Assembly: GCA_032718475.1 (NCBI GenBank)
Contig: JAUCBJ010007326.1
Coordinates: 1 to 44,142 of the forward strand
Direction of reading: 5' to 3'
DNA length: 44,142 nucleotides
From: Nemertoderma westbladi
Taxonomy: Eukaryota > Animalia > Xenacoelomorpha
The position numbers and the translations under genes were made by a program. This document shows positions 1,537 to 32,000 of this stretch, piece after piece (positions within the stretch are counted from its first letter, which is position 1; each line of letters opens with the position of its first letter). The notes beneath the pieces are model-generated. The model was not told the origin of the DNA and made no database searches. It worked only from the letters and a program-made list of their open reading frames with translations.

Positions 1537-1750
1537 GGCAGAACATGCTGTTGTCATGGTTGGATATGATGATGAGGCATTCAGTGGTCAAAACAAAGAG
1601 TGTTTCCAAGTTCCTGATGAATTAGACAACAACATCATTATATTCGATTGTTACACTCCTGTTGCCGGAAGATATATCATCATTGAGAAAGAAATTGGAG
1701 GGGTATTGAGTTTCTGTGAACTTTATGTTTGGGGTTACTTGGTGTATTAG
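1537..1750 (+). CDS. Last exon of a PAN + F-type lectin (fucolectin-like) gene, copy A; intact in this exon
   Basis: Acceptor cttctttactcAG at 1536. Translation AEHAVVMVGYDD...NKECF...FDCYTPVAGRYIII...LSFCELYVWG* fits the F-type lectin C-terminal pattern (C...GRY.I...L..CE..V.G). Phase matches the exon at 28728-28847 of the paralog. Confidence 0.85.
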
Positions 1751-3614: not shown

Positions 3615-3812
3615 GGGTCTAAACTCTACACCGACAACCATTATTAAAGCGAATTAATAATATTATTTATTAATTGAGGGAAAGGAACAGGTTACAGTGG
3701 AAGGTTATTCTAAAAAAACAATAAACGAGTCACAAACTCAGGTTACATTTTCATATTTGCTGTTGTCGGCAGTGGTTGTCGGCTGTCGGATATCGGCGTA
3801 GTGTTTAAACCC
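3615..3812. mobile_element. Small MITE with ~20 bp imperfect TIRs
   Basis: GGGTCTAAACTCTACACCGA ... TCGGCGTAGTGTTTAAACCC; ACCATATTGT occurs close to both ends. Confidence 0.5.
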
Positions 3813-5075
3813 TACCATATTGTAGTTTGTTAGAGAGCGTTATATACCTGTTAATGAATCAAAGCCTCAAATGTGCAGTAATAATTTGAACTCAAAATGA
3901 GCGACGGGTAAGGGAGGGGGTGGTGGGTCTATCGACACAAATTGCACCTGGACGAAGAAATAATGAAGTTAATGGGAATCGAACGAATACAATGGCAATA
4001 TCTTATAACCAAAACATAATAAGTAACAGGTCTTTCAATTATTGCTCGTTATAAAAACAAGTTACAAACAAAAATGTTACAAAATAGTTTTATTAGGATT
4101 AGGAACTTGAACAAAATACTCCAAACAAAACATTTTTATTTTAACCTTATTTAATCAGAACTGTACACTCGAATTCGCTTTCGTCGCTTGATCATGTCTT
4201 TTTTAGATATTAGTGTAATCTTCCTTTTCCTTCCCTTAATAATTTCCTCGATGCCTCCGTCATCACGCCCTCCCTCTCCAGCCTCCGTCTGACTGTCTGA
4301 GCGCCACCACTACGTCCTCCCTCTCCAGCCTCCTTCTGCTAGGCTACGCTAGGCTGTCTGTTCTGTATGTCTGTCATTGACATCTCACCTTCCTCAGTTC
4401 AGCAGTACCTGCTTTCAGTCCGGTATCTTCTGTCTTCCAGTCTTCGGCGTAGCGTACATCTGCTGATCTGTCTCTGTCTGTACATTGCACATTGCAGCAT
4501 TGTGCAGAATACGCCGAGTTGCCGAGCCACGAGCCAGTCAGGCAGCAGGCAGCGTATTTACTTACATGGCTTCCGACTGTCCGAGTAAATGCAAAAATAC
4601 GCAGCGTATCTTCCCTTCTGCCGTCCGCGTAAATTCGGCTGTTCCGAGAAATTCCAGTCTGGCCTACCGGTAGGTAGCGGTGCCGCGCTACCGGCAGACC
4701 GGGTAGGCCTATTTTCAGATTTTATTATTTTGCATGTTAGTTTTACCTGATGACAGGTCAGCCACCAGCCGGTACCATTACATGCAGACATGTGCTTTAC
4801 TGCAGTACTGCATTAGGGCATTACCTGGATTGGCCTACAACAATATCAGAATACAGGAATAGGGCTGTAGGGACTGAGGGAGCAGATAGCTTACTGCATA
4901 CTGCTGTACTGCAGTACTGGTAAATTTGACCTAGCTCAGGAGAAGCTAGAGGTAAAATAGCTGGCAGCCTGATTTTCCCGCCAAAACCATGATTTGTGTA
5001 GAAGACAACCAAATCCTTAATTTAAAAATCCTGAATTTCCATTGGCAGATAGGCTAATTACGATTTTTCTTAGAA

Positions 5076-6330
5076 GTGAAGGAGGCTGCTCCTGTGTTGA
5101 TTTATTATCAACCATCACCATCCCTTCTTATTAATGATAATTCAACCTCGTATACAGGTTTTTATGATTTTAAAAATGGCGACTATACTGCTTTCAGTGC
5201 TTACATTAAGAATAGTAATATTATTACCAGGTATGAAAGTTGTGTTACGGTAGACGATTTTTATGAGACTTTTTCCTCAGTACTTAAGGAAGGCATAGAC
5301 AAATTTGTCCCTTTCAAACCTTTTAAACAACGCAAAAAGTATTACCCGCTTTTTGTTAGACGCCTTCAGAGGGCGAAGAAATTACTGTGGAGGAAACGAC
5401 ATAGAGAGAATGGGCGACAAGAATATTATCGTGTGGCAAAGGCTGCAGCCTCTGCAGCTCACCGCGCTACCTGCATCAAAGAGACTGAAATCCTAAACTC
5501 GGGTAACCCTGCTTTAATTTATAAATATATAAATTCAAAGAGAAAATCCACCTTGGGTATTGGCCCTTTAAAATTCAAAGGTGATACGGTAGTGGATGAT
5601 GCGACAAAGGCCCGTATATTTAACGAGGTGCTAACCCAAAATTTTACAGTTGATAACAATGTAAAGCATCAATATACCCAGTAAAGTGCATAGTAGTATT
5701 AATTTGTCGACTATTAATTTTAGCCCGGTAAATGTGTTAACTTTTTTGAATAAGTTGCCCAATAAGAAAAGTGGGACCCCTGACAACCTACCGAGTATTT
5801 TATTTCATCGTTTATCAGTGTGCTTGGCTAAACCATTATCTGTTATATTTAAACTCTCTTTTGAGACACACACACTTCCATCTATTTGGCTTACTGCTAC
5901 CATTATTCCTATCTTTAAAAATGGTGATCCTTGCGACCCCTTTAACTATAGACCAATATCATTAACTTGCATCGCATGCAAAATTATGGAAATGTGTGTC
6001 AAAAATGATTTATTATCCTATTTGCTATTGAATAAATTGATCAATAAGGCACAACATGGTTTCTTGTGCCGTAGGTCTACCAATACACAATTATTGGAGT
6101 GTGTTACAGATTGGTATAATATGGTTGATAATAGGCAAAATATCGATATAATTTATATCGATTTCGCCAAAGCCTTTGATTCCGTTGTGCACAGCAAATT
6201 ATTAATTAAACTGAGAGCTTATGGCATAGCTGATGACTTGTTATTGTGGCTTTCAGCCCTTCTGTCAAATAGGACACAGCGTGTTGTTGTCGGTAAATAT
6301 TGCTCAGATTTTGCACCAGTTACCTCCGGT
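5076..6330 (+). pseudogene. CR1-clade LINE ORF2 fragment (linker and N-terminal RT), frameshifted and 3'-truncated
   Basis: Motifs PIFKNGD, NYRPISLT, QHGF, YIDFAKAFDSV and RTQRVVV; ends at VTSG just before the expected VPQGS; frameshift near 5684. Confidence 0.92.
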
Positions 6331-8236
6331 ACAATATTATGGTGCAGGTTAACTGGCAGAATAACGTCATACAAGAGGCTGACTGAATTATAAAATTGAA
6401 TTACGCATCCAATCCTTGCGAGAACTATTCCGTAATTCAATTTCGAACGAAAATTAATAAAACGAAATAAATGATATTTAATAATAATTATGGTAGATTT
6501 ATGATATTAAGGCGAATTATATCACTTTTAAAATTTATAAAAATTTGAATCACGCATCCAATCCGCATGCGTATCGCATGCACAAGTCCGCACTTCAATA
6601 TTGCACCTAAATTAATAAAATGCAATAAATGACATTATATTTGAATAATTATGGTAGATTCATGATTTTAACATGAATTATATCATTTTTTAAAATTTCT
6701 AAAAAATGTTTAAAATTTATAAAAAATTGAATTCCGCATCCAATCCACATCCCGCATGCCCTACGCATGTGGATCGCATGCGTCTTTTTGACTGGGTATT
6801 TCTCCATTTGACGCAACACCGCCGCGGCCGCTATGAGGGAGGTGAATACCGCGGCCGCTCCTAAAGCCGCAGGCCATCGCTAACTATATAGGTTAACTTG
6901 GGATTCTGGGGGACTTTTCGATGAAGGAACAGACCAAATTTTTTTATTTTCTCACCAGGGGAGCGGCTCGGAATTCTAAGATATTAGCAACTCTAACATT
7001 ATTAAATCTAACCCTTCGACGGACACGGCGGACAAAAATCCGTCATTTTTTCGACAATTTTAAAATTTTTTTGAAAGGCGCTCTACAGTGGCTCGAAAAA
7101 ACCCTAGGTTATTGCTTAGCCGACGCCGGGATACGATAGAAGGGATTAATTAGTGAATTCGTTTTTTTTTTCAAAAAAGATTACCACGCCTTTTTTCCGA
7201 AAATGTCCGTCAAAGTTGAAAAAACGGACAAAATGACTTTGCGGGATCCGCTATAACTCGGCTAATATTAATCGTACGGGGACGAAAGTAACGCGGTTGG
7301 AAAGGGGAAGAGTGGTACTACCTTCGTATCGAATGGGGGTAAGATATTTATTAAAATTTCGGGTGGAAAAAGGGGCTGTAAATTTGTACGTTTTTGTCCG
7401 TCTTTTTTGGAAAACTTATTTCCGAAATGTTTAATTCGACAACGCGGGTAGGAATCCACTAATTCTTTTATGAAACTCGTAGAAGACCATTGGGGCTACG
7501 TTCCTATCGAATGGGGGTACAAAAAATATGTCGGCAATAGGGGCCAAAAAGGGCCAGAATTTGTAAAGTAGTTTTTATCGAATAATTTTTTATTTTTAAC
7601 TTTAGTTGGCTAAGGTACATTCTATACAGTCAATATCCATACGGGGAATTCAAATATGCTATCGGTTTTGCTCCAAGGATGATATTAAAAAATGAGGGCC
7701 AAAATTATAATTTCGCGCTTCAAACTTGCTTCGCGGGAAATCGTCTAGCTCGAAAACTACTTAACTTACGGGAGATTTGTTTACACAGATTTATAGTGCG
7801 TTAAATTATCTATCTAACAGCGTTAATCACTGCGCCGGAGGTATTATAAAACTGGGGCGGCAGGCGATCGTGTGAAATATAATATTTATAAAAAGGGACG
7901 AAATTTTTTTTTTTTTTAACAAATCGCTATTCCATTATAATTTAGCGTATTGCGCCAAAAGTACCTGTAAAAAGTATCAAATTAACTCCGCTATCTTTTA
8001 TCTTAACATATATAATTAAAATTACGAATTTTAAGGGTCGAAAAATATCGCGTTATTTTGGCCCTTTTTTTTAATTTTTTTGGGGCCAAAAATAACCCCT
8101 TCTTAAAAGATTAAGAAAAAAATTACGGCAAAGAATATACCAATTTTATTGAATTTGGACCACCAGAACCGAAGTTAGAGCGATTTTAGTGAAAAAATAA
8201 AAATAATTTTTTTTGCAAAAAAATTAAGAATGGTCA

Positions 8237-10355: not shown

Positions 10356-12102
10356 TTGACTACTATCAAGCCTAAATAAATTACAGTACATGCAGACTCC
10401 GAAATGGTTAGTTAGTATGCGTTCTAACCTAGTAGTACGACTTATTCTTTCGGGGGGGGGGGGGGGGGGGGATTTACCTTACAGTACTGGATGCCCCTAC
10501 TTTCCTAACCCGCACTTTATTGGACATACACTCTACATGCACTGCAATCCGTTCAGACCTATCAACAGTCAGACAACAGTCCAGCCTACAAATTATCTGT
10601 ACGATCTGAGCAGGCTTACACGTCTTCTGCTCAATATTAGCCTACAGATAAATAAAACTGACAGAAATAAGTAAACCATACAAAGGAATAAGGGGTGATC
10701 AATCCCTAATCCCCTAACAGCCTACAATATACAATATATCACAATCGAAATAATACTAGTACCTTTACTGCTGTAAGTACCGGTTCCGGTGGTTAGGTAG
10801 TTAGGCCTACAGGTTACCGGTCGACCGATACTTTTCAACTTTATTGCTTACTGCAATAAAGAAGCTATAACTGTTATTGTTCTTACCAGAACAATAGTCA
10901 ACTATATTTATTGCCTACACTGCAATCAGAGTTAATAACTGTTATTGTTCGCGCTTTTAGACCTTTAGCAGTTTAACCCGCTAATTTTAGGTGTCTTTTA
11001 GTTTGTAAATCGACTTTAGCCTATGACGAGTATTTGATACACTACATTAGCCGAAGCCAGCCTATGCGCGACCATTCACCCGCTGGATATACCCGGGAGA
11101 CTGGATTCGGGGGCTCTGACCTTATTGCGGTGTAGGCCTACTGTATTATTCGATTGATCGTTAATATATAATCTCTGACAAATATTATTCACTTTCGGGA
11201 AATATTAACAGTTCCCTTTGGACGTGGCGCTCTAAATATATAAACAGAGCTATGACTTACACTAAACACAACGGGATGGCTAATGATTCACGTATAAGGC
11301 GCATTCTTTAGGAGATGCTTTGTTATCTGTCACAGTCATGCACACTACCGGTACCGCACAATACTGCACACTGATCTGCCGACCTTCACTAATTTTAGTC
11401 ACATATAAAGAGAACAGCAATTGACCCATGTAGTACCTATGAAATAGCATTAGATTCACTCCAAAACCAATATCATATAAGTCACAATTGCTATATGTAA
11501 CCGGTCTCTTACCTTCAGTATATCAAGAAGATGGGGTTTTATGATTATTTCTCGATATTATCCAAATATAACAATTTTCCATCAACAGATACAATTAATA
11601 ACCGACAGTAAATAGCAGTAAAATAATGCGGTGAAAGATATGTATAGCATTTGACAGGCAGGATAACAGTTATACGTTCCGGTAATCAAAGCCGTTCTAA
11701 TGTTTTGGCTAAAGTCTGAAACAGAATAATTCCATAGCCGATGTTCATGGCATCTGTAAAACCAACACACTGAAACCTGTGCGCTGTTGTATGCAGCTTT
11801 CAACACAAAGAGAAATAGCTCTCATTGGCAGAACTCCAGATTCTATAGGTTCCACGAACGTCTAAATGCCAAACCTCCCTAGCCTTTGCGGCCCATAGCC
11901 AACACAAGGGTAAATCGCTCTGATTGGTCGATCATTGTTCTGATTGGTTAATCGAACAGAACGGCCATACGTACAGCAAATCGGCCAATCAGCCAGCAGA
12001 ATGCATCACTCGAGCAAGGCAGTTTTAGAGTATTTGAGCGCATTGAGGGAAAACTGGATTGCGGAGAAAAAGGGCCAGTTACATCCCGCAAAAGCTTTTA
12101 CA
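10356..12102 (-). mobile_element. Truncated, diverged sister of the BEL/Pao element: full LTR (12102-10946) plus ~590 bp of leader
   Basis: Reverse complement begins TGTAAAAGCTTTTGCG and ends AAAAGCGCGAACA. 10356-11830 aligns by eye to the reverse complement of 13060-14433; the U3-proximal part is more diverged. Confidence 0.9.
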
Positions 12103-12779: not shown

Positions 12780-13918
12780 TGTAAAAGCTTTTGCGTAATT
12801 AGCCGGTTATTTTCCCCGTAAAGTACTCTGTAGTTGGTTTACTGGGCATAAAAAGGCCGTGTCCTTACTGTACTGGTGTTTTAGAGGACATAAAAGTCAT
12901 TTCTTCTGTATGTGTACTTTAGAGGACATAATCCGCAATTTCGTGACGCAATAAGCCGGATACTCTTGAAAACAGTGTGGCTACCATGACGACGGCTAAC
13001 AGCTGATATTGCCACGTCGAACATTTCTTTGTTCTTTGTTCTCTCTTTGTTCGGTCGACCAATCAGAGCGTTTTTTGTCTCTGTGTTGGAGGTTGGATAC
13101 AGAAACTCAGTAATTCAGTGTATATGTTTTTGCCCAGAGCCTAAGAACACCGGCTTTTGGCACCTCCGTGTTTCAGTCTTTAGCTTAACATTAGTAGGCT
13201 TAATTATAGAACGTATATCTGTTATCTAAACATATCATGCATATCTTACTTAACATTACTGCTTTTGCTGTCGGTTATTCATTATATTTGTTGATGGAAG
13301 ATTATATTTGGAATACTGATCAATAGTCAGACACCCCAATCTTCTTGATATACTAAAGGTTAGAGAGACCGGTTACATATAAACGATTGCGACTTATGTT
13401 AAGTGGTGTGAAGTGAATCTAATGCTATTTTATAGGCCCTACATGTATTGTCTGTTATTCTCTTTGTATGTGACTAAAATTAGTGAAGGTCGGCAGATTG
13501 GTGTGCAGCATTGTGCAGCATTGTGTATGATTGTGACTGATAACAAAGCATCTCCTAAAGAATGCGCCATATACGTGAATCTATAGCCATCTCATTGCGT
13601 CTGGTTTAAGTCATAACTCTGTTTACATATTTAGAGCGCCACGTCCTAAAGGAACTGTTAATATTTCCCGAAAGTGAATAATATTTGTCAGAGATTATAT
13701 ATTGCGATCAGTCGAATAATACAGTAGGCTTACACCATCAATCATTAAGCTTCCGAATTCAGTCTCCCGGGTATATCCAGCGGGTGAATGATTGCGCATA
13801 GACTGGCTTCGGCTAATGTAGTGTATCAAATACTCGTCATAGGCTAAAGACTATCTATCATCTAAAAGACATCCTAATTTGGCAGGTTAAACTGTCAAAG
13901 GTCTTAAAAGCGCAAACA
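12780..13918 (+). repeat. 5' LTR (1139 bp)
   Basis: TGTAAAAGC...GCGCAAACA; differs from the 3' LTR by about 11 substitutions and one 10-bp duplication (TTGTGCAGCA at 13511), counted by eye. Confidence 0.96.
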
Positions 13919-13929
13919 ATAACAGATAT
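13919..13929 (+). promoter_or_regulatory. Candidate self-priming primer-binding site
   Basis: ATAACAGATAT abuts the LTR, lacks the TGG of a tRNA PBS, and is the exact reverse complement of ATATCTGTTAT at 13215-13225. Confidence 0.7.
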
Positions 13930-14202
13930 TGCTTCTGGATTGCGGCGTAAGCAATCAAGTCGAAAGTACCGGTCGACCGGTAACCTGTACGGCCTGACTG
14001 CCTGATCCCACTCCCGAACCGGTACTTACAGTACAGGTACAGCAGTATTATTCGATTTGATAATTATATACCGGTAGGCCTTAATAATTAATCAGGGACT
14101 GGCCGCCCTGGTTTTTTATTGAGATTTTACTTGTTTCTGTCAGGTTTTATTTATTTGTAGGCCAGTATTGAGCAGAAGGCGTGTAAGCCTGCTCAGATTG
14201 TA

Positions 14203-14780
14203 CAGATAATTTGTAGGCTGGACTGTTGTCTGACTGTTGTTAGGTCTGAACGGATTGCAGTGTGTGTAGAGCGTCTGTCCGATAAAGTGCTGGTTAGGAA
14301 ATGTAGGGGCTTCCAGTGCTGTGAGGTAAATCCCCCAGTGAAAGAATAAGTCGTACTACTAGGTTAGAACGCATACTAACTAATCATTTCGGAGTCTGCA
14401 TGTCCTGTAGTTTATTTAGGCTTGATAGTAGTCTGCCAGCGTTTGGTCTGTACTTTGTTTGTGTAGTCTGTACGGGTAGCGTATAATTTTATTTAGATAA
14501 TTTGTAGGCTGGATAGTTGTCTGGCTGTTGTTGGGTTTGAGGAAATTTCGGTGTGTGTAGAGCATCTGTCCGATAAAGTGCTAGTTGGGAACGTAGGGGC
14601 TTCAAGTGCTGTGAGGTAAACCCCCTGTGAAAGAATAAGTCGTACTACTAGGTTAGAACGCATACTAACTAATCATTTCGGAGTCTGCATATACCGTAGT
14701 TTGTTTAGGCTTGATAGTAGTCTGTCAGTATTTGGTCTGCATTTTGTTTGAGTAGTTTGTACGCGTAGCGTAATATTTAT
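14203..14780 (+). repeat. Two ~291 bp tandem repeats in the retrotransposon leader
   Basis: AGATAATTTGTAGGCTGGA...GAAAGAATAAGTCGTACTACTAGGTTAGAACGCATAC... starts at ~14203 and again at ~14494. Confidence 0.9.
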
Positions 14781-16118
14781 TATTCAGAGTTTATGCGATT
14801 ATTCGCAACATTCATTCCCCAAGTTTATTCCTACAGTAATTGTGTTTGTTATACATACCGTTATAGTTAAACTAACCCCGGTACTACATCAGGGCTGCTC
14901 GGCGTAGGTAAAGACTGGAGATTTTATGCTTTGGTCACTCCGGCAGATACCGTGGTTCTTTTAGCTGTTCAAGTATTTTTAACTACTAATTATTTGTTGT
15001 ACAAGTACTTGTACCTAATTTAGGGTTTAGTGTACTGTACTTTCCGAAGGTGATTAGTGTGTAGGCAGTATATTTGTGTTGTAAAGTGGTTAATAGGCAC
15101 GTTGGTTCTGGTAGACCGCGGTAATTAATCTCTAGGTAGGAACACTCCGTGATACATAACGTAGTACCTATAGCGATACGGTTATAGGTCGTCAGGCGGT
15201 GGTATTTTCCTATCTGGACAACGCAGTATATTTACTACTACTTATTATTTTCAAATACCGTAGTAACCTGTCCGTTGTAATAACCAGATATTCTAACCCT
15301 TTGTTAGGCTGGTTAGTAGACTTCTTGTAAAATTACCCTAAAAATTCGTATTTGTGTATTTGTAATTAAATTTTTGTGTTTATTTAGAGATTGTAATCTC
15401 AACCCGAATTGTACGTAATTTGTAGTATTAAGTAACTTAGGTAAATTAGAATTATTTGTTTTAGTGTCTAACAAGTAGCACTCCACTGAGAGCGCACAGC
15501 TTATGTGTAGTGACTCCCCCAGAAATAATAACATTTATTTCAAACATTGACAAAACCCATTAAACGGGTATATATATATTATAAATCAACTCAAACGATT
15601 TATAAATAGTAGGCCTGCCATACAACAATTAGGTCTCAATATCAGTTGGACTACTGCTTAAATAATGGTAATAAAGTAAGTTAAAGTAACCAAGTAACCC
15701 TTAAAATTCAGAAATTCAATTATTCTAAAATAATTGATATACCGGTATTTACAATAGGCTTATTATCTTTATTTCTATAAATTTAGGCTGAAATTATACC
15801 GGTATTCTGTAATTAATTCTAGTCTGTAATTATACTTATATATACACATTATAAGTGTAAGCTGTATACCGGTATTCACGATAGGCCTATTATATATATA
15901 AATTTAGGCTGAAATCATACCGGTATTCTGTAATTAATTCTAGTTACTAATAATACTTATATATACTATAAGCATACCGGTATTCTAATATTATATATAT
16001 ATCACGCTACACTGAGTAGCAGTATCGGTAATTAATTACTAGGCTAGCAGTTAATGCTGAATTACTAGACTTGCTTAGACTGTAATATAGCAGTAGGCAT
16101 TCAACTGTGTAAACAAAC

Positions 16119-17613
16119 ATGTCTGATACTAAGCAGAACCTGTCAGACAGTTTATTAGATGTAACTATCTGCGACTCAGATAAGGGTGTAGAACCGTCTA
16201 CACCTAAGTTCAGTTCACCTCCCACTGTGAGGAAGGTCATCCCTCCAGTAGTAATAACAGAACCTAGGCTGGTCCAACATCGTAGGTCTATCATAGGCAC
16301 TCGAGCTCAGGTCAAGCGGGACCAAGAAGCAGCGGAACAGCAACAACCCGCGAGCCAAGAACTTATTTCTCAGCGGCCCGACAGCTCCAGTAGTGAGGAT
16401 ACTGTAGAGCTGACACCCGAGCGCGGAGCAAAGATGACGGATGCGGTTTATTCGGATCCCCTTCTCATCCTGCCTGCAGCCGTACTCACTAGGATATTGA
16501 TCGCGGTGGAAGAACACCAGATCGATTGGGCGAGAAGTCAGCGATCAACTAAAGATAGTTATGCGGGATACACAAGGGAAGAACTGAAGTCTATTGTCGA
16601 GTCGCAATGGAACTTCCCCGGACCCGGACTCCCGTTTGATTTATCAGAAGCTGCCTGGGAAGACATACACCGGATGGGAGTAACCAAGGAAACCATCGAT
16701 CCAGCTGTGTGGAAGAGGTCCGCAGCCGGATACGCACAGGGATTCTTCAGCTCTATGGAGCGAGTAGAAAGAACAACTGTTTCAACAACCCCAAGGACCT
16801 CAAGAGCAGGGACAACTGCTTTATCAAGTTAGAGAAAGAATTCTACGAATCAGGCTAATCTTATCGGCCTTTGAAGAGGCTTCTAAAAGAAGACAAGACA
16901 CGTCGTTGCAAGTTGCCGTAAAGACTTGGTTTCAGCGGGTGAGTCTCCAGGTTCAAGGAACAGCTCAGTGGAAAGCTCAGCTGGAGGAGCGCTCAACCCA
17001 TGGAGAATCAACAGACGCTACTTTTTCCCAAGTGGAAAGTGAAGCGACGGCAGAGAAACCGCATAAGAGGGATGCCATTGACATCTATCTGTCAGACTAT
17101 CAGCGTTTTTTAGGAGATGAAGAGTTGAGGAGAAGGTTAGATGGACTTAGCCCTAATAGTGAAGGAGCCCAGAGTGTGTTGGACGCAATTGATGTGGATA
17201 GGATAGCTGCGAACCAAGCTAAATTTGATGAAAGTATCCGCATCGCTAAGGTTCAAGAAGAACAAGTAAAGAAAAAACGTATAGAAGATAGAAAGACAGC
17301 AGCAGCGGCAGTGGCAGCGGCAGAAGCGGAAAGAAAAGCGGCAGAAGTGGATAGAAAAGCGGCAGAGGCAGCGGCAGAGGCAAAAGCGGCAGCGGCAGAG
17401 GCAAAAGCGGCAGCTGCAGCAGTAGAAGCCAAAAGAAAGGCGGCCGAAGCGGAAAGAAAAGTGGCAGCAGCAGAAGCGGAAAGAAAGGCGGCCGAAGCGG
17501 AAAGAAAAATAGCAGTGGCAGAAGCAGAACGGAGGGCATCTGAAGAGACAACCCAACTAGAGTTGGAAAATCTTCAAGAGAGACAAGACAACTTTAATAA
17601 ACTTTCCCAGTGT
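16119..17613 (+). CDS. gag: ORF1 / N-terminal Gag region with Ala-Glu-Lys coiled coil; one +1 frameshift near 16765
   Basis: ORF 16119-16832 joins the frame of 16906-17628 via EQLFQQ...RILRIRLILSAFEE if one base is removed. The helical region followed by AAEAERK repeats resembles BEL Gag N-termini. End placed at the predicted 5' splice site. Confidence 0.6.
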
Positions 17614-18633
17614 CTTTTCCCAGGGTAGCACTATTGGAATGGAGGTGTTACATCGGAATGGGCAGGTTCTGATGATTCTGTTGGTACTACTATTGGAATG
17701 GAGGTGGCACCCGGAATATCGGCTGCAAGGAGGGGTTGGTGTTGTAGTGTGGTCCGAGTGAATGATACTCTGGATTCTGTGGTGTGTGTGGACGATCAGT
17801 GGCAGTTTGCTTGAGCTTTCTGTTGCTGTGGGTACGTGGTATACGTGAGTGTATGTATGGGCACTGCGAGTGAGTATGGGAACCCTTCCCGGTTGGTTCA
17901 GTCGCCGCTGGTATTAGTAGGACCATATCTTTACTGCGCCCCAGCATACTTTGTGCACACTAAGTTATTTTGCCCTGACGGCAAAATAAGGTACTCTCGA
18001 CTCTTTTGACAGTCGATACAATTTTGTCCCCTCTGATTTTGTCCCCGATTTTGTCTTTCCCGATTATGTCCTCTGTGTGTGCATGGTATGTGTCAGATTT
18101 TGTGTTTACCGTAGTGTACTTGATATTGTGAACATCTGTTGAGTACACGTGTACAGTGACTGGTAAGTGGTTACTTGTTCCTAGCTTTCGAGCTAGTCAG
18201 TATTGTTTGCGGAACCGACTTCCCCTCAATACTGCCGGCGAGGCGGGTGAAAACGTGTCAATATTCCATGTTGGGTAGCGCAAGCCCACTTGGGACAAGA
18301 CCGTCGGTTTGGCTCAAGGGCGACCTTGATGCTCGATCGCTATCGACTGGTCCACCCGCCGGTTGACTCTCTGAGTTGGCTCAATGTACAGTCAGGCCAC
18401 AGTAAGTTGACAGTAGCCGACCATCTGGCTACACTGACGAGCTGTGCCGGTGTGATCGGGGGATTGAAAAGTGAACCCGGGAAGCATCGGGCTACCCTCC
18501 GGCCCGGTCTGATAAAAACATCAGTCGGACTGGCCCCAAGGGTAGTGGAAAAGCGTCCGCCTCGTGGGTGCGCCTCGGGGAGGAGCCCAGAAGGACGTAA
18601 GCGATACATCATCTGAGGAAGGTGATACCACCG
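17614..18633 (+). ncRNA. Group I self-splicing intron (ID-like core at 18242-18394; boundaries predicted)
   Basis: P3 GGCGGGTG (18242-49)/CACCCGCC (18353-60); P4 ACG[T]GTC/GACCGT; P5 with GCAA loop; P6 CGGTT/GATCG with TCAAGG-GCGA-CCTTGA; P7 T[C]GACTG (18343-49)/CAGTCA (18389-94); P8 GGTTGACTC/GAGTTGGCT; J8/7 CAATGTA; P1 with U17613-G17628 wobble; P10 CAGGGT/ATCCTG; terminal CCG at 18633. Confidence 0.82.
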
Positions 18634-18680
18634 ATCCTGAAGGCGGAGGAAATCGATCTCGCCTAAGCAGACGTAAAAGA

Positions 18681-21600
18681 ATGTCCCACCGTCAGAAATT
18701 GCCTGATTTGCCCCCAGCTGTTAGAAGGCAACTAAATAACACAGATTTAGGTAGTACAGAACCCACAGACCAAATAATTAAAATAAAAAGACTCCCTACT
18801 ATAGTAGATGAGCCTGAAATAATTAGGCCTGTTCTTGAAATCACCCCTTCGGTGATAGAGACACCTGTGCTCCCTGAACCTACCTCTAAATTCCCTCTGC
18901 ACAGCACTAAGCTACCTGTGCCCAGTAGAACAGCCCATGAGACAGTTCAGGTCCTGGACTCCGAGCGAAATATTCATGATTTGTCGCCCGTTGTCCCTCG
19001 TCCGCCCGCTACAACGTTGGCGAATCCCGCTTCGGCGGTCGAATGGGTGGATGAGAGACGATGGGGGATGGATCTCCTGCTCGGACAGATGCAGGAGACC
19101 GTTCAGCAATTCAAGGGCACAGTAAGGGAAAGTAGGTTAGAGTTGCAAGAAGTGCAGCAAAGTATCGCGCTAGAACGCGATAAATTAGTAAATACACAAA
19201 GGGGTATACCACCACCCCCTATAACAATGTGTCAACCTGTTAGGTCTGAAGTATCTCATGCGCAAGGTGTGGAGCCTACACGCATCTATACTGTTAGTGT
19301 TAGTGAAGTAGAAACTCCTATAGTAAACCCTATTAAGGGTAATTATAAACCTGTTGACAGTGATATTCCCTATAGACTTGATAATAATCCGAGAAATTTA
19401 TATACCAATAACTCGATATTAAATAATACGATGGCCCAAGAAAGTTTTACGCGTCAAATGGCTAGAACCGAAGCCCGTCAAGTGGTAAGGATGGGAGAGA
19501 TCGTCAAGTTCAATGGAGATGAGATGAAATGGTTACCTTTTAATGAATATTACAAAGATAACATACAGAACTTCGTGTTATCTAACGGAGAAAAGCTTAG
19601 ATTCCTCATCGAGTGCTTGGAGGGATCTCCCAAGTTAATGGCGTTAAAGTTTATTGGACATCCAGATGGATTAAGACAAGTTTGGGATACAATAAACATC
19701 AGGTATGGTAATAGGACTAACATAGCTAGGTATTTGTATGCAAAATTAATGGCGCCCCGAAAGTTTCTTAGCAGCGGGATTATAGAGTTTTCCGACGAAA
19801 TTCAGGAGATCTGTAGACAGCTAGATTGGTTAGGTAAGTCTCATGAATACCAGAATTCTATGGTTGTAGGAGCCTTAGCATCAACTCTGCCAAAGGGTGG
19901 AGTAGGTACACGCTGGGATAAGAAAGTGTTATATATGATGGAACAACAACAACGAGACCCTACCATGGCTGATCTCATGTCATTCTTGGATGGAGAAGTG
20001 AAATTACAGCTCCTAAAACTGTCCAGAGAGAAGACACCGGAAAACAAGGTAAGTGAAAAACCCGTCTCTAGGAGAAAGGTAACACCAGTGTGTTATACAG
20101 ACGACGGCGAAAGCCAGACTTCTCAAGGAGAGGATAGCGGGAAAGACACTGACAGATCTTATTATGTCAATAAAATGCCTAAAGATCAGGTAAGTAAATT
20201 CAAGTCTCGAACCAATGACAGGAGAGAACAGGTAAGAAAAACTCCTCCTACGTCTCCTAAGAGAATTCAAGTAAGAAAGCCCGAAGAAAGAACGAGTGTG
20301 CACAACGTTACTCAAAGTAAGGTAAGTAACATCAAACCAAAATGTGTGCTGTGCGACGGGCCCCACCGTTTGAATATGTGTGATAAATTCCTAAAGAAAT
20401 CATTAAAGGATAGATGTGAAGTCATGTGGGATAAGCGGTTGTGTTATAATTGCCTCAGACGAGGACACCAACGGCGAACCTGTTACTCCGACGCAAGGTG
20501 TGCAAAGTGCGGCGCAAAACATCATATCTTGTTGCACACGGAATTCGAACGAAACAGCCCGAGTCAGGTAAGTGAGTCCGAACTACATGTCCAATTCAGT
20601 GATGTGAACGACACTGACCAATATTCTGAGATGGAAGGATTCTATACGGACGAATTCTCCGACGAAAACGAATCCTGTTACCTGACAAATACCGCAGTGT
20701 ATCGAGCACTTACGTATGAAAAGGACACCGACAGCGAGCTCCCCCCAACTACTTCTGATCGACAACCATCTTGGAAAGCGCCACCTTCCAATGTAGGAAT
20801 CCGAGAATTTCCTGTAGTACAGGTAAGGGTCCACGGATCTAAAAGGAGTTATATAGTTAACGCCCTCCTTGACCCCGGTAGCACTGGAACATTCATCGAC
20901 AAAGAACTAGCCGAAGACATCTTTGCTGGACAACCCAAGTTCCGAACTAAGTTAAACATGTCAGGAATTATGCATGTTTGGAAATCTACAGTAATAGCGG
21001 ATTATTATGTAGGTGCGTTGTCCACCCCCCAGGATGAACTAGGAGAACACAGCATAAGGTCAGTAAAAATGGTGGCGATAAAGAACTTCGGTACCAGCCA
21101 ATTAGAGCCTTATAACTGGGATGAGGACGATTTCACCCAGCAGTTTGATATACCTAGATTCAACACCGATTACCCTGGAGTGCCAATACTCATCGGTCAA
21201 AATGCGCATGAAGCGCTCGAGACATTGGAGAAACGGCCTGCTCAACCGCAACCCCTACAAGCTTATGCGGGAAGAACTAGAGTGGGTTGGTACTTTACTG
21301 GCCCTTCCCGTAGAACTCTCATGGAAAGATTACCGAAAGACCAGGTATGTCAAGTGAGAGAATGGGAAGTCGAGAGCAGTGAGTTAGACGATCCAACTGA
21401 GGGAACACCATACTCCTCAGATAATGACGATATCAACTCCAATGTAGATCAATGGAGACATTGTCCCGAGACGATCAATCTAGCCGACATCGCTTCCAGA
21501 GGAGCAACTCCTCAAGAACTGATAGATACTCCAGCGTGGTTAGGTGGACCCGACTTCCTAAGTAAAGAAGATGAATGGCCTCCTCATCTTACCCCGGCTA

Positions 21601-21773
21601 AGATTAGACAGGCCAAGGGAGCGGGGAAAGTAACACAACAACTCAATCGCCCAGCTGGTCGTTTATGTTTACTGGAAAGAAACCGAAAACTGTCCGGAAA
21701 CTATGGAAGGCAAGATACTCTTCCCACGACCACCTCCCTAATCCAACAAATATCTAGGGACTCCATAACGTAA
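18681..21773 (+). CDS. gag-pro: BEL/Pao Gag (capsid, zinc knuckles) - aspartic protease, fused in frame to short RNase H-end and integrase C-terminal remnants
   Basis: Frame open from 18564, first ATG at 18681. KFNGDEMKWLPF...KLRFLIECLEG capsid region; CVLCDGPH..C, CYNCLRRGH..C, CAKCGAKHHILLH; ALLDPGS; RTRVGW; WRHCPETINLADIASRG...WLGGPDFL; RPAGRLCLLE. No RT or DDE core. Confidence 0.92.
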   Translation: MSHRQKLPDLPPAVRRQLNNTDLGSTEPTDQIIKIKRLPTIVDEPEIIRPVLEITPSVIETPVLPEPTSKFPLHSTKLPVPSRTAHETVQVLDSERNIHDLSPVVPRPPATTLANPASAVEWVDERRWGMDLLLGQMQETVQQFKGTVRESRLELQEVQQSIALERDKLVNTQRGIPPPPITMCQPVRSEVSHAQGVEPTRIYTVSVSEVETPIVNPIKGNYKPVDSDIPYRLDNNPRNLYTNNSILNNTMAQESFTRQMARTEARQVVRMGEIVKFNGDEMKWLPFNEYYKDNIQNFVLSNGEKLRFLIECLEGSPKLMALKFIGHPDGLRQVWDTINIRYGNRTNIARYLYAKLMAPRKFLSSGIIEFSDEIQEICRQLDWLGKSHEYQNSMVVGALASTLPKGGVGTRWDKKVLYMMEQQQRDPTMADLMSFLDGEVKLQLLKLSREKTPENKVSEKPVSRRKVTPVCYTDDGESQTSQGEDSGKDTDRSYYVNKMPKDQVSKFKSRTNDRREQVRKTPPTSPKRIQVRKPEERTSVHNVTQSKVSNIKPKCVLCDGPHRLNMCDKFLKKSLKDRCEVMWDKRLCYNCLRRGHQRRTCYSDARCAKCGAKHHILLHTEFERNSPSQVSESELHVQFSDVNDTDQYSEMEGFYTDEFSDENESCYLTNTAVYRALTYEKDTDSELPPTTSDRQPSWKAPPSNVGIREFPVVQVRVHGSKRSYIVNALLDPGSTGTFIDKELAEDIFAGQPKFRTKLNMSGIMHVWKSTVIADYYVGALSTPQDELGEHSIRSVKMVAIKNFGTSQLEPYNWDEDDFTQQFDIPRFNTDYPGVPILIGQNAHEALETLEKRPAQPQPLQAYAGRTRVGWYFTGPSRRTLMERLPKDQVCQVREWEVESSELDDPTEGTPYSSDNDDINSNVDQWRHCPETINLADIASRGATPQELIDTPAWLGGPDFLSKEDEWPPHLTPAKIRQAKGAGKVTQQLNRPAGRLCLLERNRKLSGNYGRQDTLPTTTSLIQQISRDSIT

Positions 21774-22309
21774 CAACATACGGAGTGGGTGTGTGACTAT
21801 ATTATTTTATATTTATTTTTATTATTTTATATTATGTATGTATTATTATGTAATTTTATTATAATCGTTTTAATTAATTTTATTTAGTAGCATGTTATTT
21901 TAGCGATTATTTAGTAGATTAGTGCAATATATTCGCGTTTATTACGTAATTACTTATATTATATATTTAGTGCGACGGCGAGAAATAATTATTTTTCTCT
22001 TTCCTTACTGTCCGTATTACATTATAAATACGTAACTACAGTAAGATGAAATGTCCGTACTTATTAAAGTACAATAAAGCCACTACTATATTCAAGTATT
22101 ATTGGTAGGCAGAGTATTAGGAATGCAAAGTTCAGATCCTCGTGTCTCGGCTAAACCAAGCTCTGGGTAGACCACGACTTGCCTCTTCTCACTGACATTG
22201 CTTCGTGCGATATTGCTCTCATACCGTATATTAAATAATACATATAGTAGCGTGATGTCCCTTTAACAGTAGCATATAACGCAAAATAAATCTGTTAAAC
22301 CCTTTGACC

Positions 22310-22585
22310 ATCTGCAATTCTAGTCGATTAAGATATCGCGGCACCCACCGATATTCTTGAAAGACAAAATTCTAGAATCAGTGGTTAACGTCCCCAGACA
22401 AGTTCTGGAATAAACTGGTGCCCATCCTAAATATTAATTATTAATATTTACAAAATCTGTCAAATTTTAGATCCTTTAACATTCTAGTCGATTAAGATAT
22501 CGTAGCATTTACCGATACTCTTAAAAAGACAAATTCATAGAATCAAGGATCATATGTCCCCAGATATGCTCTGGAATCAAATTGT
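22310..22585 (+). repeat. Two ~165 bp-spaced imperfect repeats in the 3' region of the element
   Basis: TTCTAGTCGATTAAGATATCG...AAGACAAA...TAGAATCA...GTCCCCAGA...CTGGAAT at ~22318 and ~22482. Confidence 0.75.
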
Positions 22586-23387
22586 GTCAATTTAACTATC
22601 AAATAATAAAATTTCAGGGAATAAATTTAAATTCATACTTTAATGAATTTAATAAATTGCAATTTTATACAATTTATAACATTCCCAAAATTCCATTAAT
22701 TAATAGATCATGGGAGCGGAGATTCACTATATTAAGTGTATTGTGTGTGAGAATCTCCAATGTATAGTCAATAGCCGATAAAATTCATAAAATCATATAT
22801 AGAGAGGATATTGACAATTAAAGAATTACTATTAAATAGCATCCCAGATCTGTATGCATGAGAATTACCCTAATTCTACCGCTAGCTTTCCATAATGTCA
22901 CCATGGCAACAACCACGCTAGAATTAGAAGTGAGTTAAAAGAACAATAAAGGGCTTGCGCATTGAATAGCATACGGAATAAATAGCACACCACTAGTATC
23001 CAAGGATACATAATAACAACGTGACATTCTGGAAGGCACTTGACTAACGGACAAATGACCCGAATGTGTGATAGAATGTGTACCATTTGTGACTGTTACG
23101 TGGAATTTGTGCGTTTGTAGGTGAATGTTACTACTAAGGTGTGTTTACAGTAGCGAGTCGCAATTGTGAAAGTAACCCTAACTCTCCAGTAAGAACCTGA
23201 AGTATATCTAAGCCTTTGGGACGGACGGTGGAGTGGCTCGTGCTGGTTGTTGTAGTCGTTGTGCAGCTACGACGTTGGCGATAGGCACATCGGCGAAAGT
23301 ACACCAGCGCTGAGGATCTCGCACTGTCCGGGGGCAGAGAGGGGTAGGCAGCGACGCCCGCTCGCCTAAATATAAACTCATTATAAT

Positions 23388-24983
23388 ATGGATAAACTTA
23401 TATAGCAGATATGATTGAGTTGATAGAAGATGATCTTGGTATCACGGAACGATATACTCTACCTTTATAAGCGTTTGTTGATAGCTTGATACGCGGCAAC
23501 GCTGGTCCAACTACTACGGAGGACGATGGTCGTTATATCTAACCGCCAATGTCCCGGGAGCAACTTGCGTGTGGGTTAGACTGTAGAAAATTCACCGCTC
23601 GCTATACGCATCGTAATGGTACGTATATGGACTTCTTAACTACTGGTCATCCTATCGACCTACACGATACGAACGATATAGACACCAAAGGGAAATGGTT
23701 TATTTAAATATCATACCCAGCGGAAGCGGAACGATAAACTGAGACTCGAACACGAAAATTCTATTCGAAACCGACTCGAAAGTGCAGATGTCGAAGAGCC
23801 GGACAAACGCAGCGACTCCACCAAATACCTGGAATTCTTGAGAGAAACCTATCTCGATATTACCAGTCAACAGAATCTAGAAACTCGATATCCTCAAGGT
23901 ATACATCATGACCGCATGGTAGAACTCAAACGGCTCTATTCCACTATGATGTATCTTACCGCCGATCGATCGCTACCTGTTGTACCGGATAGCTTCGAAC
24001 GGATGGAGGAATATTGTAAGCTGGAGAAAGATCACTCGCGTTTCCCCTACAAGACGTGCGTTTTTGGTATTATTGCGATGAATGCCCAAGACCCAACCAA
24101 CAAACGGAAAGACATAAACATCCGCGGAGACGTTGCTTTAAACACGGTTTTACTCGCTATACTTACGGGAGTTTCGAGCGAAACTTGTTCGATGTATCAC
24201 CTACGCTCGTTCGACTCAGACGATCCTTAAATAAACCAATGATCAGAGTTTCGGAATACTCGATCAGAACTCCTCATTCCCTAGTGAGACTTCAGACTCT
24301 TGATCCTATTAGTATGACGGATCCTCCCGAGCTGTACTCACTGCTCAAAGATCTAGTGTTACCTGAACAATTAGTCGGTGGCACCCCAGTTGTGGGCTTC
24401 CTAGATATTAGCCCATTCTACCTAGCCGGATTGGGACGCGGACATTTAATATCGCCGTTTAACCCTTACCATCGTCCCGGCTTAACACGATATAACCTGT
24501 CACCAAAGTGGCGGAGAACGTTGTACCAAACGAGTTAAACGCTATTCTACAAAGATCAGAAAGGAAACCTGCGTTTGTTCAGATAAACGTAAGTTGTAAC
24601 AGCAAGTCCAAGCGATAAACGAATTGTCTTTATCTCAGTTCGATTGTGAAATCCAGAATCTCTAAGAAGATATCGAACTTAGACAACCCCATTCTCTGCG
24701 AGAGTTTTTGGATGAACGTATCCAGCTACGAGCGGAGGAAAATCAGCTCGAGGAGAAGCATATCGAAACTGCGGATACCCCGACCATAATCCTACACCTT
24801 CTGATGCAATCATATTGCACCCTTCACCCAGGATTTATAGCCCTCCTAGTAAAGTGGCTCGCCCCAAAGAGAAAAGGACTCTTGCTAGCCTCAAAAAACT
24901 GCGTAAACGCCGTCTGCTTAAGAAAGACTAACTGTTTAGAGTATCTTTATATTTTAGAAACTGTGATTTGTTATATTTTATAG
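23388..24983 (+). pseudogene. Decayed accessory coding region of unknown function before the 3' LTR
   Basis: GC-richer stretch with consecutive or overlapping protein-like frames (from 23388 with stops; ~23720-24230; 24056-24538; 24708-24983). No recognisable domain. Confidence 0.45.
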
Positions 24984-25001
24984 ACTTAAATCCCATTTTC
25001 T

Positions 25002-25009
25002 GGGAGCGG
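25002..25009 (+). promoter_or_regulatory. Short polypurine tract
   Basis: GGGAGCGG immediately precedes the 3' LTR. Confidence 0.6.
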
Positions 25010-26138
25010 TGTAAAAGCTTTTGCGTAATTAGCCGGTTATTTTCCCCGTAAAGTACTCTGTAGTTGGTTTACTGGGCATAAAAAGGCCGTGTCCTTACTG
25101 TAGTGGTGTTTTAGAGGACATAAAAGTAATTTCTTCTGTAGGTGTACTTTAGCGGACATAATCCGCAATTTTGTGACGCAATAAGCCGGATACTCTTGAA
25201 AACAGTGTGGATACCATGACGACGGCTAACAGCTGATATTGCCACGTCGAACATTTCTTTGTTCTTTGTTCTCTCTTTGTTCGGTCGACCAATCAGAGCG
25301 TTTTTTGTCTCTGTGTTGGAGGTTGGATACAGAAACTCAGTAGTTCAGTGTATATGTTTTTGCCCAGAGCCTAAGAACACTGGCTTTTGGCACCTCCGTG
25401 TTTCAGTCTTTAGCTTAACATTATTAGGCTTAATTATAGAACGTATATCTGTTATCTAAACATATCATGCATATCTTACTTAACATTACTGCTTTTGCTG
25501 TCGGTTATTCATTATATTTGTTGATGGAGGATTATATTTGGAATACTGATCAATAGTCAGACACCCCAATCTTCTTGATATACTAAAGGTTAGAGAGACC
25601 GGTTACATATAAACGATTGCGACTTATGTTAAGTGGTGTGAAGTGAATCTAATGCTATTTTATAGGCCCTACATGTATTGTCTGTTATTCTCTTTGTATG
25701 TGACTAAAATTAGTGAAGGTCGGCAGATTGGTGTGCAGCATTGTGTATGATTGTGACTGATAACAAAGCATCTCCTAAAGAATGCGCCATATACGTGAAT
25801 CTATAGCCATCTCATTGCGTCTGGTTTAAGTCATAACTCTGTTTACATATTTAGAGCGCCACGTCCTAAAGGAACTGTTAATATTTCCCGAAAGTGAATA
25901 ATATTTGTCAGAGATTATATATTGCGATCAGTCGAATAATACAGTAGGCTTACACCATCAATCATTAAGCTTCCGAATTCAGTCTCCCGGGTATATCCAG
26001 CGGGTGAATGATTGCGCATAGACTGGCTTCGGCTAATGTAGTGTATCAAATACTCGTCATAGGCTAAAGGCTATCTATCATCTAAAAGACATCCTAATTT
26101 GGCAGGTTAAACTGTCAAAGGTCTTAAAAGCGCAAACA
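25010..26138 (+). repeat. 3' LTR (1129 bp)
   Basis: Direct repeat of 12780-13918, followed by the GGTAT TSD. Confidence 0.96.
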
Positions 26139-29038: not shown

Positions 29039-32000
29039 GGTTGCGTCGCGTTTCGGCAACTGTCACGTTTAGGCAACTCAAATTCGCAACTGAACAATTA
29101 CGTTTCACCAACTGCTATAGTTGTGTTTCGGCAATTTCAGCCTTTCGGCTAACTGAAGTTGCGTTTCGGCAACTAGGTCACAAACCTCGTATGTAATGTA
29201 ACTGTGACTACATTCATTATGAAAGTAAATTATAAATTATGACAAGTTTAAAAGTTACTTATAGTTATTGATGGCAGAGTTGTTAATTGGTCATTTATAT
29301 GTATACATTGCCGGTTTGCACATATGGCAGTGATAAAATATGATTTTGTGGTCTGATTGATAAAGGTGGAATTTTTCTCCACGAAAATTAGAACTAATCA
29401 TTGTACGCTCTCCATTTTGGGCGCAAACTGATCCTGAGATATGTCGGATTCTAAATTTTGTCTACTGAGTCGAACGCCAGTTGAAAAACCAAAATTGAAA
29501 AGGGGAATAGATAAACAGTACTGTGTGAATTAATATCAGATTTAATTATAATATCAGATTAAATTAATAGACTTATCATATATCGAATAATATGGGGACA
29601 ATATACAGTATGGAATTAATAACATCAGTTTCTATATAACTCAAAGTAGTGTTGGAGTAGGCTTGGGTAAAATAATGTAGAATGTAAATGAATAATGGGA
29701 AACGTAATGAGGCAAAGGTAATAAATAATACTGATTTGCTCTGCCCTACGTTGATACAATGCGATGATGGTGACGTTGAGATTCCACCTATCTCTATACT
29801 GTAGGCTCTATACAGTATCCAGGTGGAGAGCGCAAATGGAGCATTTGCGCCGTGCGAGCGCATGGCCGACGGCGTTGGCCATGTGGTATTGTTTTAGAAT
29901 ATTACAGTATTATTAATCCCATGTAAAGTTAAAAGTTAAAGCCCATATTGCTGATGGAAAATAACAAATGCCTACCTTGATTTTGTTAAGGTCAGTTTTG
30001 TTTATACTTGAAGGCTTACATATATAAGTATACATGGGCATAATATTCCAAATACTTTTGTTGCGCCTGTCGATTCGTATGAATCGACAGGCGCATAGAC
30101 CCCCCCAATTTATATTACTTGCGCATGTACATTAGTAGGCCTACAGAAGTACTTGGGTATTCCTGTATTCACAATATTCAACTACCATATATGAAGATAG
30201 GGTACGTTTTGACTAAAATTCTGCATCTGATGTAACATTTTGACTAGGCCTATCTGCCAAAAGAACCTCCACTATATCTGCCCTTCATGTAGGCCTACCA
30301 TATTATTAAATTATTATTTATACTTCAAAAATTTGTGGCACGAAACACATCACACGAAATGGAATTACAATAAAAGCAGGCCATTTAAAACCATCTTCAA
30401 TCAATTAATTCAGCACCTTGGAAAACCTAATAATAAAAATTATTCAAATTTGTTGAATTGACAAAGGTGGTTCTGAATTAACGAGACGAGGGTGGACCCA
30501 GAGCTATCGAGGGTGGTCCCTGAATTAACGAGTGAGGACCCAGAGTTAATAGGGATATTCCCTGGATTAATAAAAAATAATTAATACCAAAACTAATAAC
30601 AAAAAAAACACCCAAAATATAATACCAGCAAATACAGAAATATACTCATATTAACAAATAACACAAAAATAATTATTTAATAAAAAATTTAATATTGAAC
30701 TTTTAAAGCTCTAAAATCATAAAGAAAACCCATGAAGGTGTATTCCAATTACAATTGTTCAACCCCAGTGATTTTAAAATACACCAGACATGTCAGAGAG
30801 CATTGTAAGTATCATTTCCTTTGTGCAAAAATTAATTCTTCTTGATATATTATATGCAAAATTTTCATGCATATTCAAACAATCAAAAGCGTGAAACCGG
30901 TAGTCATACAGCAATTGGATGTCTTTAGTAGGATCGGAAACACTCTAGAGAACATTTAAAATAAACTTCATCATTCCAAAGTGAATACTTCTTGAGATAT
31001 AGCCTTTCAAAAAATTAACCAATCATAGACCACGTAGCAAACCCCGACAATCCAACAGCTATAAAACATCGTCAGTGAGTTAGGACATACTCCAGAGAAT
31101 ATTCTTAGCTTTCAAACTTCATCCCAAAGTGAAGCAAACTCGAGTTATCGTCGTTCAAAGCATTAGCCAATCAGGCGCCGTATCTGATGACCACGGTATG
31201 GGGGTGACTTGGGACCTCAACGCGAGATTCAGAACACCATCCAAAACATATTCGCATAAAATCTTATCACTAATTGTCAAGGCCTAGGTAAGTTTTCAGC
31301 GTTTGAATATTTGAGCCAATCAGGTGCCAGATACAGTGACCACGGTACGCGCATGACCTGAGACCCCAATGGAAGGTTCAGAGTACTGGCCAAAACATTT
31401 TCGCATCAAATTGTACCGTAAAATGTTACTGCATATCACAGCAAAGTCACCTACCGGTATTTGATCAGCAAAAGATCAGGTCTGACTGTGTGATTTGGGT
31501 CTGATCATATTTTCCTTTGCATGCATAAGAAGCCCTTCAATGGTCACTATCCGCTACATTGATCTAATCCATATCGTCAGATAGCCCGTGTTGCTGTTAT
31601 AAGATTTATTTTGATTTGGTGCGATTTGGGTAATTTTAGTTTTTTTGGGGTAAACTATGGTATTAATAACTTCCAGTAAAATCCCAACATTAAGAACATT
31701 GCTAGAAACGTCAATCATCTATAGCCTACAAACTAAGGATAACTATCAGCCAGTTACTGTACATGGGCAGATGGGTATACTAAGTACAGGAGTACCCAGT
31801 ACTTGGATATTCCTGTATTGACAATACTCAACTATATGAAGATAGGGTACGTTTTGACTAAAATACGGCATCTGATGTAACGTTTTGACTAGGCCTATCT
31901 GCCAAAAGAACCTCCACTAAATATGCCATCTCACTACAGACTGTGGAGATAGCTACCGGCAAGAGGTGCTTGGTATATAGTTTTAGTCAGTAATGGCATA

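Follow-up and report, generated by a model that had tools for sequence, protein, structure and literature searches.

A group I-type intron in the gag region of a BEL/Pao-type retrotransposon from Nemertoderma westbladi and the question of its retention

The window analyzed here is a 44,142-nucleotide (nt) stretch of DNA from Nemertoderma westbladi (Xenacoelomorpha; assembly GCA_032718475.1, contig JAUCBJ010007326.1, positions 1 to 44,142 of the forward strand). It contains a long terminal repeat (LTR) retrotransposon of BEL/Pao type at 12780-26138, and the gag region of this element holds an insert that, judged by its letters, looks like a real group I-type intron in the sense strand. The insert, whose core and 3′ end are those of a group I intron, is probably an optional passenger of LTR retrotransposons, retained by incomplete self-splicing and gained by reverse splicing; it is not the stop-and-restart switch between genomic RNA and Gag mRNA that an initial annotation had proposed; the likeliest 5′ splice sites would give no Gag in this copy. 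From the evidence below we infer splicing itself, leaky splicing rather than selective packaging as the means of retention, and gain through RNA. The parts of the gag region on which the argument draws are as follows.

16768-17628, forward strand: open reading frame 1 (ORF1) of the initial annotation, with coiled-coil-like A/E/K repeats and no ATG
17603-17615, forward strand: junction piece absent from most gag copies, where the candidate 5′ splice sites lie (after 17613 or 17615); the second break of this copy
17614-18603, forward strand: group I-type intron of about 990 nt, with a firm 3′ end and a 5′ end that may shift by a few bases
17859-17866, forward strand: stronger alternative guide, with 8 pairs to an exon ending at 17615 or 6 to an exon ending at 17613
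18242-18394, forward strand: catalytic core, with P3 (18242-49/18353-60), P4, P5, P6, P7 (18343-49/18389-94) and P8
18395-18603, forward strand: 3′ peripheral domain with terminal G18603, seen in a profile match and in variation among copies
18604-21773, forward strand: downstream gag-protease frame of BEL/Pao type, with DUF1759, and with zinc knuckles and a protease motif recognized by eye

Fold and boundaries of the intron

The predicted core forms a P3-P7 pseudoknot with P4, P5, P6 and P8 in the right order. P7 carries the pair G18345-C18393 after a bulged C18344, and this pair, identical in 38 of 38 aligned rows, corresponds to the P7 G-C pair that has the guanosine-binding role in group I introns. 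Relatives were sought with motifs taken from this sequence and compared through profile hidden Markov models. A two-motif pattern from the P7 strands led to 34 viral stretches and a second pattern to 98 metagenome and 29 viral stretches, with no match in prokaryote genomes; after motif and length filters the 127 loci were reduced to 37 non-redundant cores, which were aligned with 18233-18407. In the resulting 38 rows, 98.7% of the 1329 cells of 35 pairs are paired, and both sides have changed in 15 of the 35 core pairs (7 of 8 in P3), a level reached by none of 500 shuffles and approached by no slid structure. P3, P5 and P8 covary, and P4, P6 and P7 are nearly invariant. A profile built from the 37 relatives without this sequence matched 18237-18406 (E 3e-34), and a 3′ profile of 38 relatives, whose training ends were set by AAG(C/T)G, matched 18387-18584 with an envelope reaching 18603 (E 3.6e-15). 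Variation among the element's own copies also retains the fold: A18329G and C18554T keep wobble pairs, and T18493C together with A18544G change both sides of one pair. An extra T18256, a base missing in some own copies, bulges P4 in the copy studied. The support that does not depend on the search motifs consists of the covariation in P3, P5 and P8, the exon phases and the depth step described below.

Of seven sequencing runs, none recorded as RNA, six contain part of the stretch. Copies were compared through the assembled contigs of four runs (X1, X3, X4 and X5) from four studies, in which summed contig depth does not equal copy number; the intron is multi-copy in the organism's runs. Most family copies match ORF1 only as far as 17602. 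Depth in X1 and X3 drops about 10-fold within 17603-18603 and recovers at 18604, and between the bins 18565-18603 and 18604-18642 it rises 23-fold in X1, 13-fold in X3 and from 0 to 17 in X5. Contigs leave after 17602 (29 in X1, 11 in X3) and enter at 18604-06 from other sequence (13 in X1, 5 in X3, 1 in X5), and single contigs join 17588 or 17602 to 18605. The intron-lacking copies carry other letters between 17602 and 18604 and hence do not represent what exact splicing of this copy would produce.

Because depth steps up at 18604, the segment 18604-18633 is ordinary gag, common to intron-lacking copies. The 3′ end of the intron is therefore firm at G18603, given this step and the same ending in relatives at in-frame junctions; among the 27 G residues in 18560-18640, only G18603 ends the relatives' AAG(C/T)G. 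Independent support comes from relatives whose introns end ATATGCG (L007), ATAAGCG (L017) and ATAATCG (L009) and interrupt coding sequence, which reads YGDTD X SNYV across the introns in polymerase B of L007 and L017 and GGNG X KSK across that in the primase of L009. The initial annotation had set the 3′ splice site at G18633, which is 30 nt too far downstream. Its argument from P10 does not help: a 6-bp pairing can be drawn by eye, yet L038, L067 and L075, which have clear junctions, show no such pairing by eye, so P10 cannot pick the 3′ site. The alternative sites offered with it, G18590 and G18593, do both precede codon starts of the Gag-PR frame, but G18593 is paired in a predicted terminal hairpin.

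The 5′ boundary is less sharp. Four X1 contigs enter at 17610, sharing the 5′ part of the intron and differing in the upstream sequence, and this points to a 5′ splice site after 17613 or 17615. Over its initial 220 nt (17603-17823), which carry an 18-nt direct repeat, the insert reaches roughly one quarter of the depth seen in 17824-18603, and copies vary most there. Phase 1 alone stays open downstream of the junction, for 1055 codons from 18604, and ORF1 reaches 17613 or 17615 in phase 0 or 2; splicing at these likeliest sites would therefore yield no Gag in this copy. Weaker in-phase sites lie after 17605, 17611 and 17617, and the 5′ junction was presumably damaged after the intron had arrived. 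The internal guide proposed earlier (17628-32, five pairs, forming P1 with 17613) does not stand out, as 47% of 300 shuffles gave one as good within 40 nt, and the stronger guide at 17859-66 was matched by 15.5% of shuffles, which is not significant; its G17861 is nearly private to this copy. Predicted pair probabilities are at most 0.054 for all P1 candidates, the earlier P1 included, and equilibrium folding favors none. P1 is frequently unstable in equilibrium folds.

The arithmetic behind the proposed switch is correct. TAG at 17626-28 is present in the sequence and ends unspliced ORF1; removal of 17614-18633 takes out 1020 nt and extends ORF1 by ILKAEEIDLA to a TAA at 18664-66; and the first ATG of the Gag-PR frame, at 18681, lies 14 nt past this TAA in the -1 frame. 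The arrangement is not conserved, however, since only a minority of copies have the ATG: a different letter accounts for 79-87% of the depth at 18682 and 18683 in X1, X3 and X5, and for 37-54% in X4. The variant rows covered (40 of 133) include nine for 18604-80; read in the Gag-PR frame six of these are silent, read in the frame assumed earlier three. As they are mostly silent there, the Gag-PR frame is coding upstream of the ATG at 18681, the TAA is off-frame inside ordinary gag, and the TAA/ATG pair is an artefact. The initial annotation had named a continuous frame past the junction in other copies as evidence against itself, and the Gag frame is largely found to code there. With a non-conserved ATG, an off-frame TAA, an ORF1 that has no ATG and most depth free of the intron, reinitiation or a -1 frameshift after splicing loses its basis, and there is no further need for the translation switch that had been suggested here. 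What survives is the retention paradox, that is, how an intron in the sense strand withstands reverse transcription: it is a real question for the intron family, raised alike by about 13 retroelement sites among the relatives.

Relatives in viral genes and retroelements

The surroundings of the relatives were read from flanking frames, of which 102 of 118, from 80 metagenome loci with long flanks, were scanned and five more were added. Viral core genes flank many loci of the family, which occurs in giant-virus genes, with introns in capsid, polymerase B, RNA polymerase and primase genes of viral contigs. One capsid-like gene (L010 and L022, viral contigs) carries two family introns close to its end, separated by 555 nt. 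Reverse transcriptase (RT), RNase H, integrase or gag-like domains adjoin the intron in nine loci by Pfam (L038, weakly, L060, L064, L067, L072, L075, L094, L106 and L108), and tblastn adds seven retroelement loci (L039, L046, L050, L052, L055, L077 and L093); the assignment of L046 rests on the frame of L037, RT-like by eye, and matches to intron sequence within two queries were removed by eye. Because retroelement domains flank them, these metagenome loci are taken to be probable animal host DNA.

All 16 retroelement contexts lie on the intron's strand and none is antisense. The 16 loci represent about 13 sites, and such uniformity has a probability of 1 in 8000 if the sites are independent and orientation is random. 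Their positions are dispersed among gag, RT, RNase H and integrase. At the 11 sites with both ends defined, exon frames are open and in the same phase on both sides in five (L064, L067, L075, L077 and L106), compatible but short in four, and neither in two. Three pairs of loci share a site (L067/L077, L038/L052 and L055/L108). Within the one integrase site common to L067 and L077, exon mismatches are 47/496 and 41/437 and intron mismatches 19/194 and 24/385; similar divergence of exon (9%) and intron (6-10%) is the pattern that an intron moving together with its element would leave.

Guides differ from site to site. The 16 readable 5′ ends (L035-L111), placed by alignment alone, have 16 different 6-nt guides, each behind a conserved loop of 28-31 nt. 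At least four of five Watson-Crick pairs are made with the own exon in 11 of 16 loci, against 0.8% of 238 cross pairs, and in a blind register P1 with a U-G pair at the 5′ splice site is found in 11 of the 16 relatives. L064 and L108 pair fully one base off, as does L035 by eye; L039 and L073 do not. The tree of the 38 cores is not resolved (6 of 35 inner branches starred, and four 'retro' labels with no domain matches behind them), so we make no claim as to whether transfer ran from viruses to retroelements or the other way.

Retention, gain and loss of the intron

The probable course of events can be put as follows. The intron would splice incompletely from the element's RNA; spliced RNA would serve for protein and, if copied into DNA, would give intron-less elements, and unspliced RNA copied into DNA would give intron-bearing ones. 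New sites would be reached by reverse splicing into element RNA followed by copying through the element's reverse transcriptase. Gain at the RNA level would account for the sense-only placement and for matched guides in introns that have no endonuclease. Most family depth is without the intron in three of the four runs (X1, X3 and X5), so the family does not need the intron to make Gag, and the minority frequency of the intron together with its scattered sites fits a balance of loss and gain better than a built-in switch.

Several observations weigh against this account or limit it. Leaky splicing and selective packaging of unspliced RNA fit all the results alike. In X4 the depth ratio across 18603/18604 is reversed (0.29), and other 3′ flanks follow 18603-04 in three contigs of X3 (agreement 0.61), in one of X4 and in record 7 of X1; these flanks and the X4 ratio allow many introns outside this BEL family. 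Among 30 of about 3600 pieces, no contig bridges 18603/18604 in the form of this copy. L067 and L077 could be diverged alleles or products of DNA duplication. On the structural side, since the motifs were taken from the window, some circularity attaches to the constancy of P4, P6 and P7, to the E-values and to the 3′ envelope; the 5′ 620 nt of the intron have no match to a profile of the 5′ domains of 14 relatives; and the intron holds 20 P1 candidates against 23.8 expected, none above shuffles. Rfam gave no match at gathering thresholds in the whole window and none in 18190-18610, the sole match of the window search being a chance long non-coding RNA (E 2.2). The cut-off of RF00028 was not reached by the cores of 18 viral loci either, so this miss reflects the reach of the model. 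As for X4 itself, intron depth of 1100-6300 over 17941-18603, beside a gag depth of 200-540, may come from introns outside this BEL family or from a different library type.

A regulated switch within an intron-bearing subfamily is the best surviving rival, though we consider it unlikely. Intact copies would then need splicing to make Gag, unspliced RNA would be preferentially packaged, and the copy studied here would be a damaged member. This would suit the in-frame splice-back at five of the 11 tested relative sites, the three same-site pairs, the four X1 contigs that join the 5′ part of the intron to another upstream sequence, and the weaker in-phase 5′ sites. It accords poorly with the dominance of intron-lacking copies in X1, X3 and X5, with the two tested sites outside open frames, and with sites spread over gag, RT, RNase H and integrase, which fit parasitism better than one regulatory position.

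Slightly less credible still is a private arrival after integration, in which intron RNA was copied into the chromosome by another element's enzyme or by DNA repair, with a local deletion and with no passage through the reverse transcription of this element, so that this copy would pose no paradox. The other 3′ flanks, the excess of intron over gag depth in X4 and the different letters that most gag copies carry at the junction can all be read in this way. In addition, 17603-09 repeats 17616-22, and such short repeats are found in templated repair inserts. Against this stand the sense orientation of all 16 retroelement contexts, a 3′ junction exactly at the terminal G and the matched guides, the last of which random insertion of DNA would not be expected to leave.

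It is highly improbable that the ribozyme of this lineage has lost splicing, with its 5′ domain remodelled and a stable P1 lacking, and is either inert or restricted to cleavage at its 3′ end: the 5′ domain without homology, the low P1 pair probabilities and the extra P4 base of this copy would agree with it, but compensating changes among copies keep the helices of core and 3′ domain, and instability of P1 in equilibrium folds is common. The original version, with a 3′ site at G18633, a stop at 18664 and reinitiation at ATG 18681 or a -1 frameshift, has correct arithmetic and a P10 that can be drawn, but is contradicted by the shared gag at 18604-33, the minority ATG, the variants silent in the Gag-PR frame and an ORF1 that has no ATG, and is very improbable.

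Other identities were considered and rejected: a homing, endonuclease-encoding intron (no homing-endonuclease-sized ORF lies inside 17614-18603, where the longest overlapping frames have 118-126 codons), an IStron (those frames of at most 118-126 codons leave no room for TnpA or TnpB), a hammerhead in 18420-18470 (inspection by eye showed no stem II), a spliceosomal intron (which, again by eye, has no good donor) and an inverted gag fragment (no self-match).

Known systems share some features with the optional passenger favored here. Chloroviruses and other large DNA viruses have group I introns in protein genes, and subgroup IB is named for one (PMC7019647). These too are self-splicing-type introns in protein genes of eukaryote-infecting viruses, and the core studied here aligns with introns of viral contigs; the present case differs in its host, an LTR retrotransposon in a likely animal nuclear genome, its length of about 990 nt, its unrelated 5′ domain and the reverse transcription that it has to survive. 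Nuclear group I introns, of subgroups IC1 and IE, are stated in 2022 to have been reported so far only in ribosomal DNA (PMC9548176); the P3-P9 core and terminal G are shared, as is the small P5 domain described for IE, whereas the family treated here sits in retroelement genes, has no homing endonuclease frame and scores below RF00028. Polinton-like viruses of protists, in which family scans found group I introns in protein genes (PMC12220804), likewise are elements integrated in nuclear genomes with intron-bearing protein genes, but they replicate as DNA and pass through no reverse-transcription bottleneck.

IStrons (IS605/IS607) also tie a group I intron to a mobile element and offer a precedent for incomplete splicing, since splicing competes with other use of the RNA and reached 80% in one locus and about 2% in another (10.1101/2023.11.20.567912). 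They carry their own DNA transposase and TnpB, whereas no such frame is present here, guides differ per site and prokaryote genomes gave no matches by the pattern used. The neoTet reporter, a sense-strand Tetrahymena group I intron in retroelement RNA that scores retrotransposition in human cells (10.1101/2024.05.03.592410), embodies the premise of the paradox, namely intron loss through retrotransposition; it is engineered and scored for loss, while the natural introns here are retained in some copies. The topic of PMC9587614 is limited to a borrowed nuclease.

Group I introns of animal LTR retrotransposons were not met in a literature search that had subscription journals and supplements mostly outside its range. 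Tentatively, and with some doubt prevailing, a wider scenario may be sketched in which a group I lineage shared with giant viruses colonized animal LTR retrotransposons as endonuclease-free RNA parasites, by reverse splicing and the element's RT, with the guide fitted at each site (16 guides at 16 sites, in introns whose bodies resemble one another far more) and with loss outrun by packaged RNA that is partly unspliced. If true, this would extend large self-splicing ribozymes into animal chromosomes through a family missed in standard scans, would supply many natural sites for testing the old idea that reverse splicing and reverse transcription are the route by which group I introns spread, and would offer a test ground for the fitting of guides to new targets and for the way in which an intron's loss is balanced by its gain when the host element multiplies through RNA. 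The intron and the question of its retention stand beyond this one copy; splicing activity is predicted.

The host element and the rest of the window

The remaining features of the retrotransposon are as follows.

12780-13918, forward strand: 5′ LTR (TG...CA), preceded by the target duplication GGTAT at 12775-79
13919-13929, forward strand: primer-site position, 11 nt complementary to LTR-internal 13215-25 and self-priming-like
16119-16832, forward strand: first gag-side frame, with the sole upstream ATG, overlapping the next frame (16768-17628)
25010-26138, forward strand: 3′ LTR, with GGTAT directly after

The insertion is young, as the initial annotation also held: the two LTRs, aligned over 1129 bases, show 11 differences besides one gap of 10 nt, and the GGTAT duplication is intact. 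LTRs, a 5-bp target duplication and a DUF1759 gag place the element with BEL/Pao. The long frame at 18546-21773 has a Pfam match to DUF1759 at E 6e-11 and a weak one to a protease, and all 13 of its distant protein matches have DUF1759 or Pao-type peptidase domains, those that are named being insect proteins. Its first 300 residues had no match among proteins of near lengths, and no natural fused Gag protein was seen among proteins of near lengths, the lengths to which the search was confined. Unlike BEL/Pao elements, this copy has an intron in gag, and the six frames of the element that were scanned gave no Pfam match to an RT, RNase H or integrase core, so that it is not placed among autonomous members. 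Up to and past the end of the gag-protease frame (21300-21900) there is no fall in the high depth, so the absence of pol may be a family trait and not a loss by this copy. In the 3′ half, 23682-24983 holds three frames of 105-182 codons with no Pfam matches. The copy is already broken upstream of the intron, because ORF1 has no ATG and is overlapped by the frame from 16119; that frame (16119-16832) has no Pfam match, and 16119-16829 no usable Atlas match.

Just upstream of the element, 10358-11828 is a relative of its LTR and leader in the opposite orientation, about 80% identical. Elsewhere in the window there are a separate reverse-transcriptase fragment at 5665-6393 (RVT_1, E 4e-12) and three tandem units of about 3.08 kb at 29817-39040, with an identity of 97-98%.

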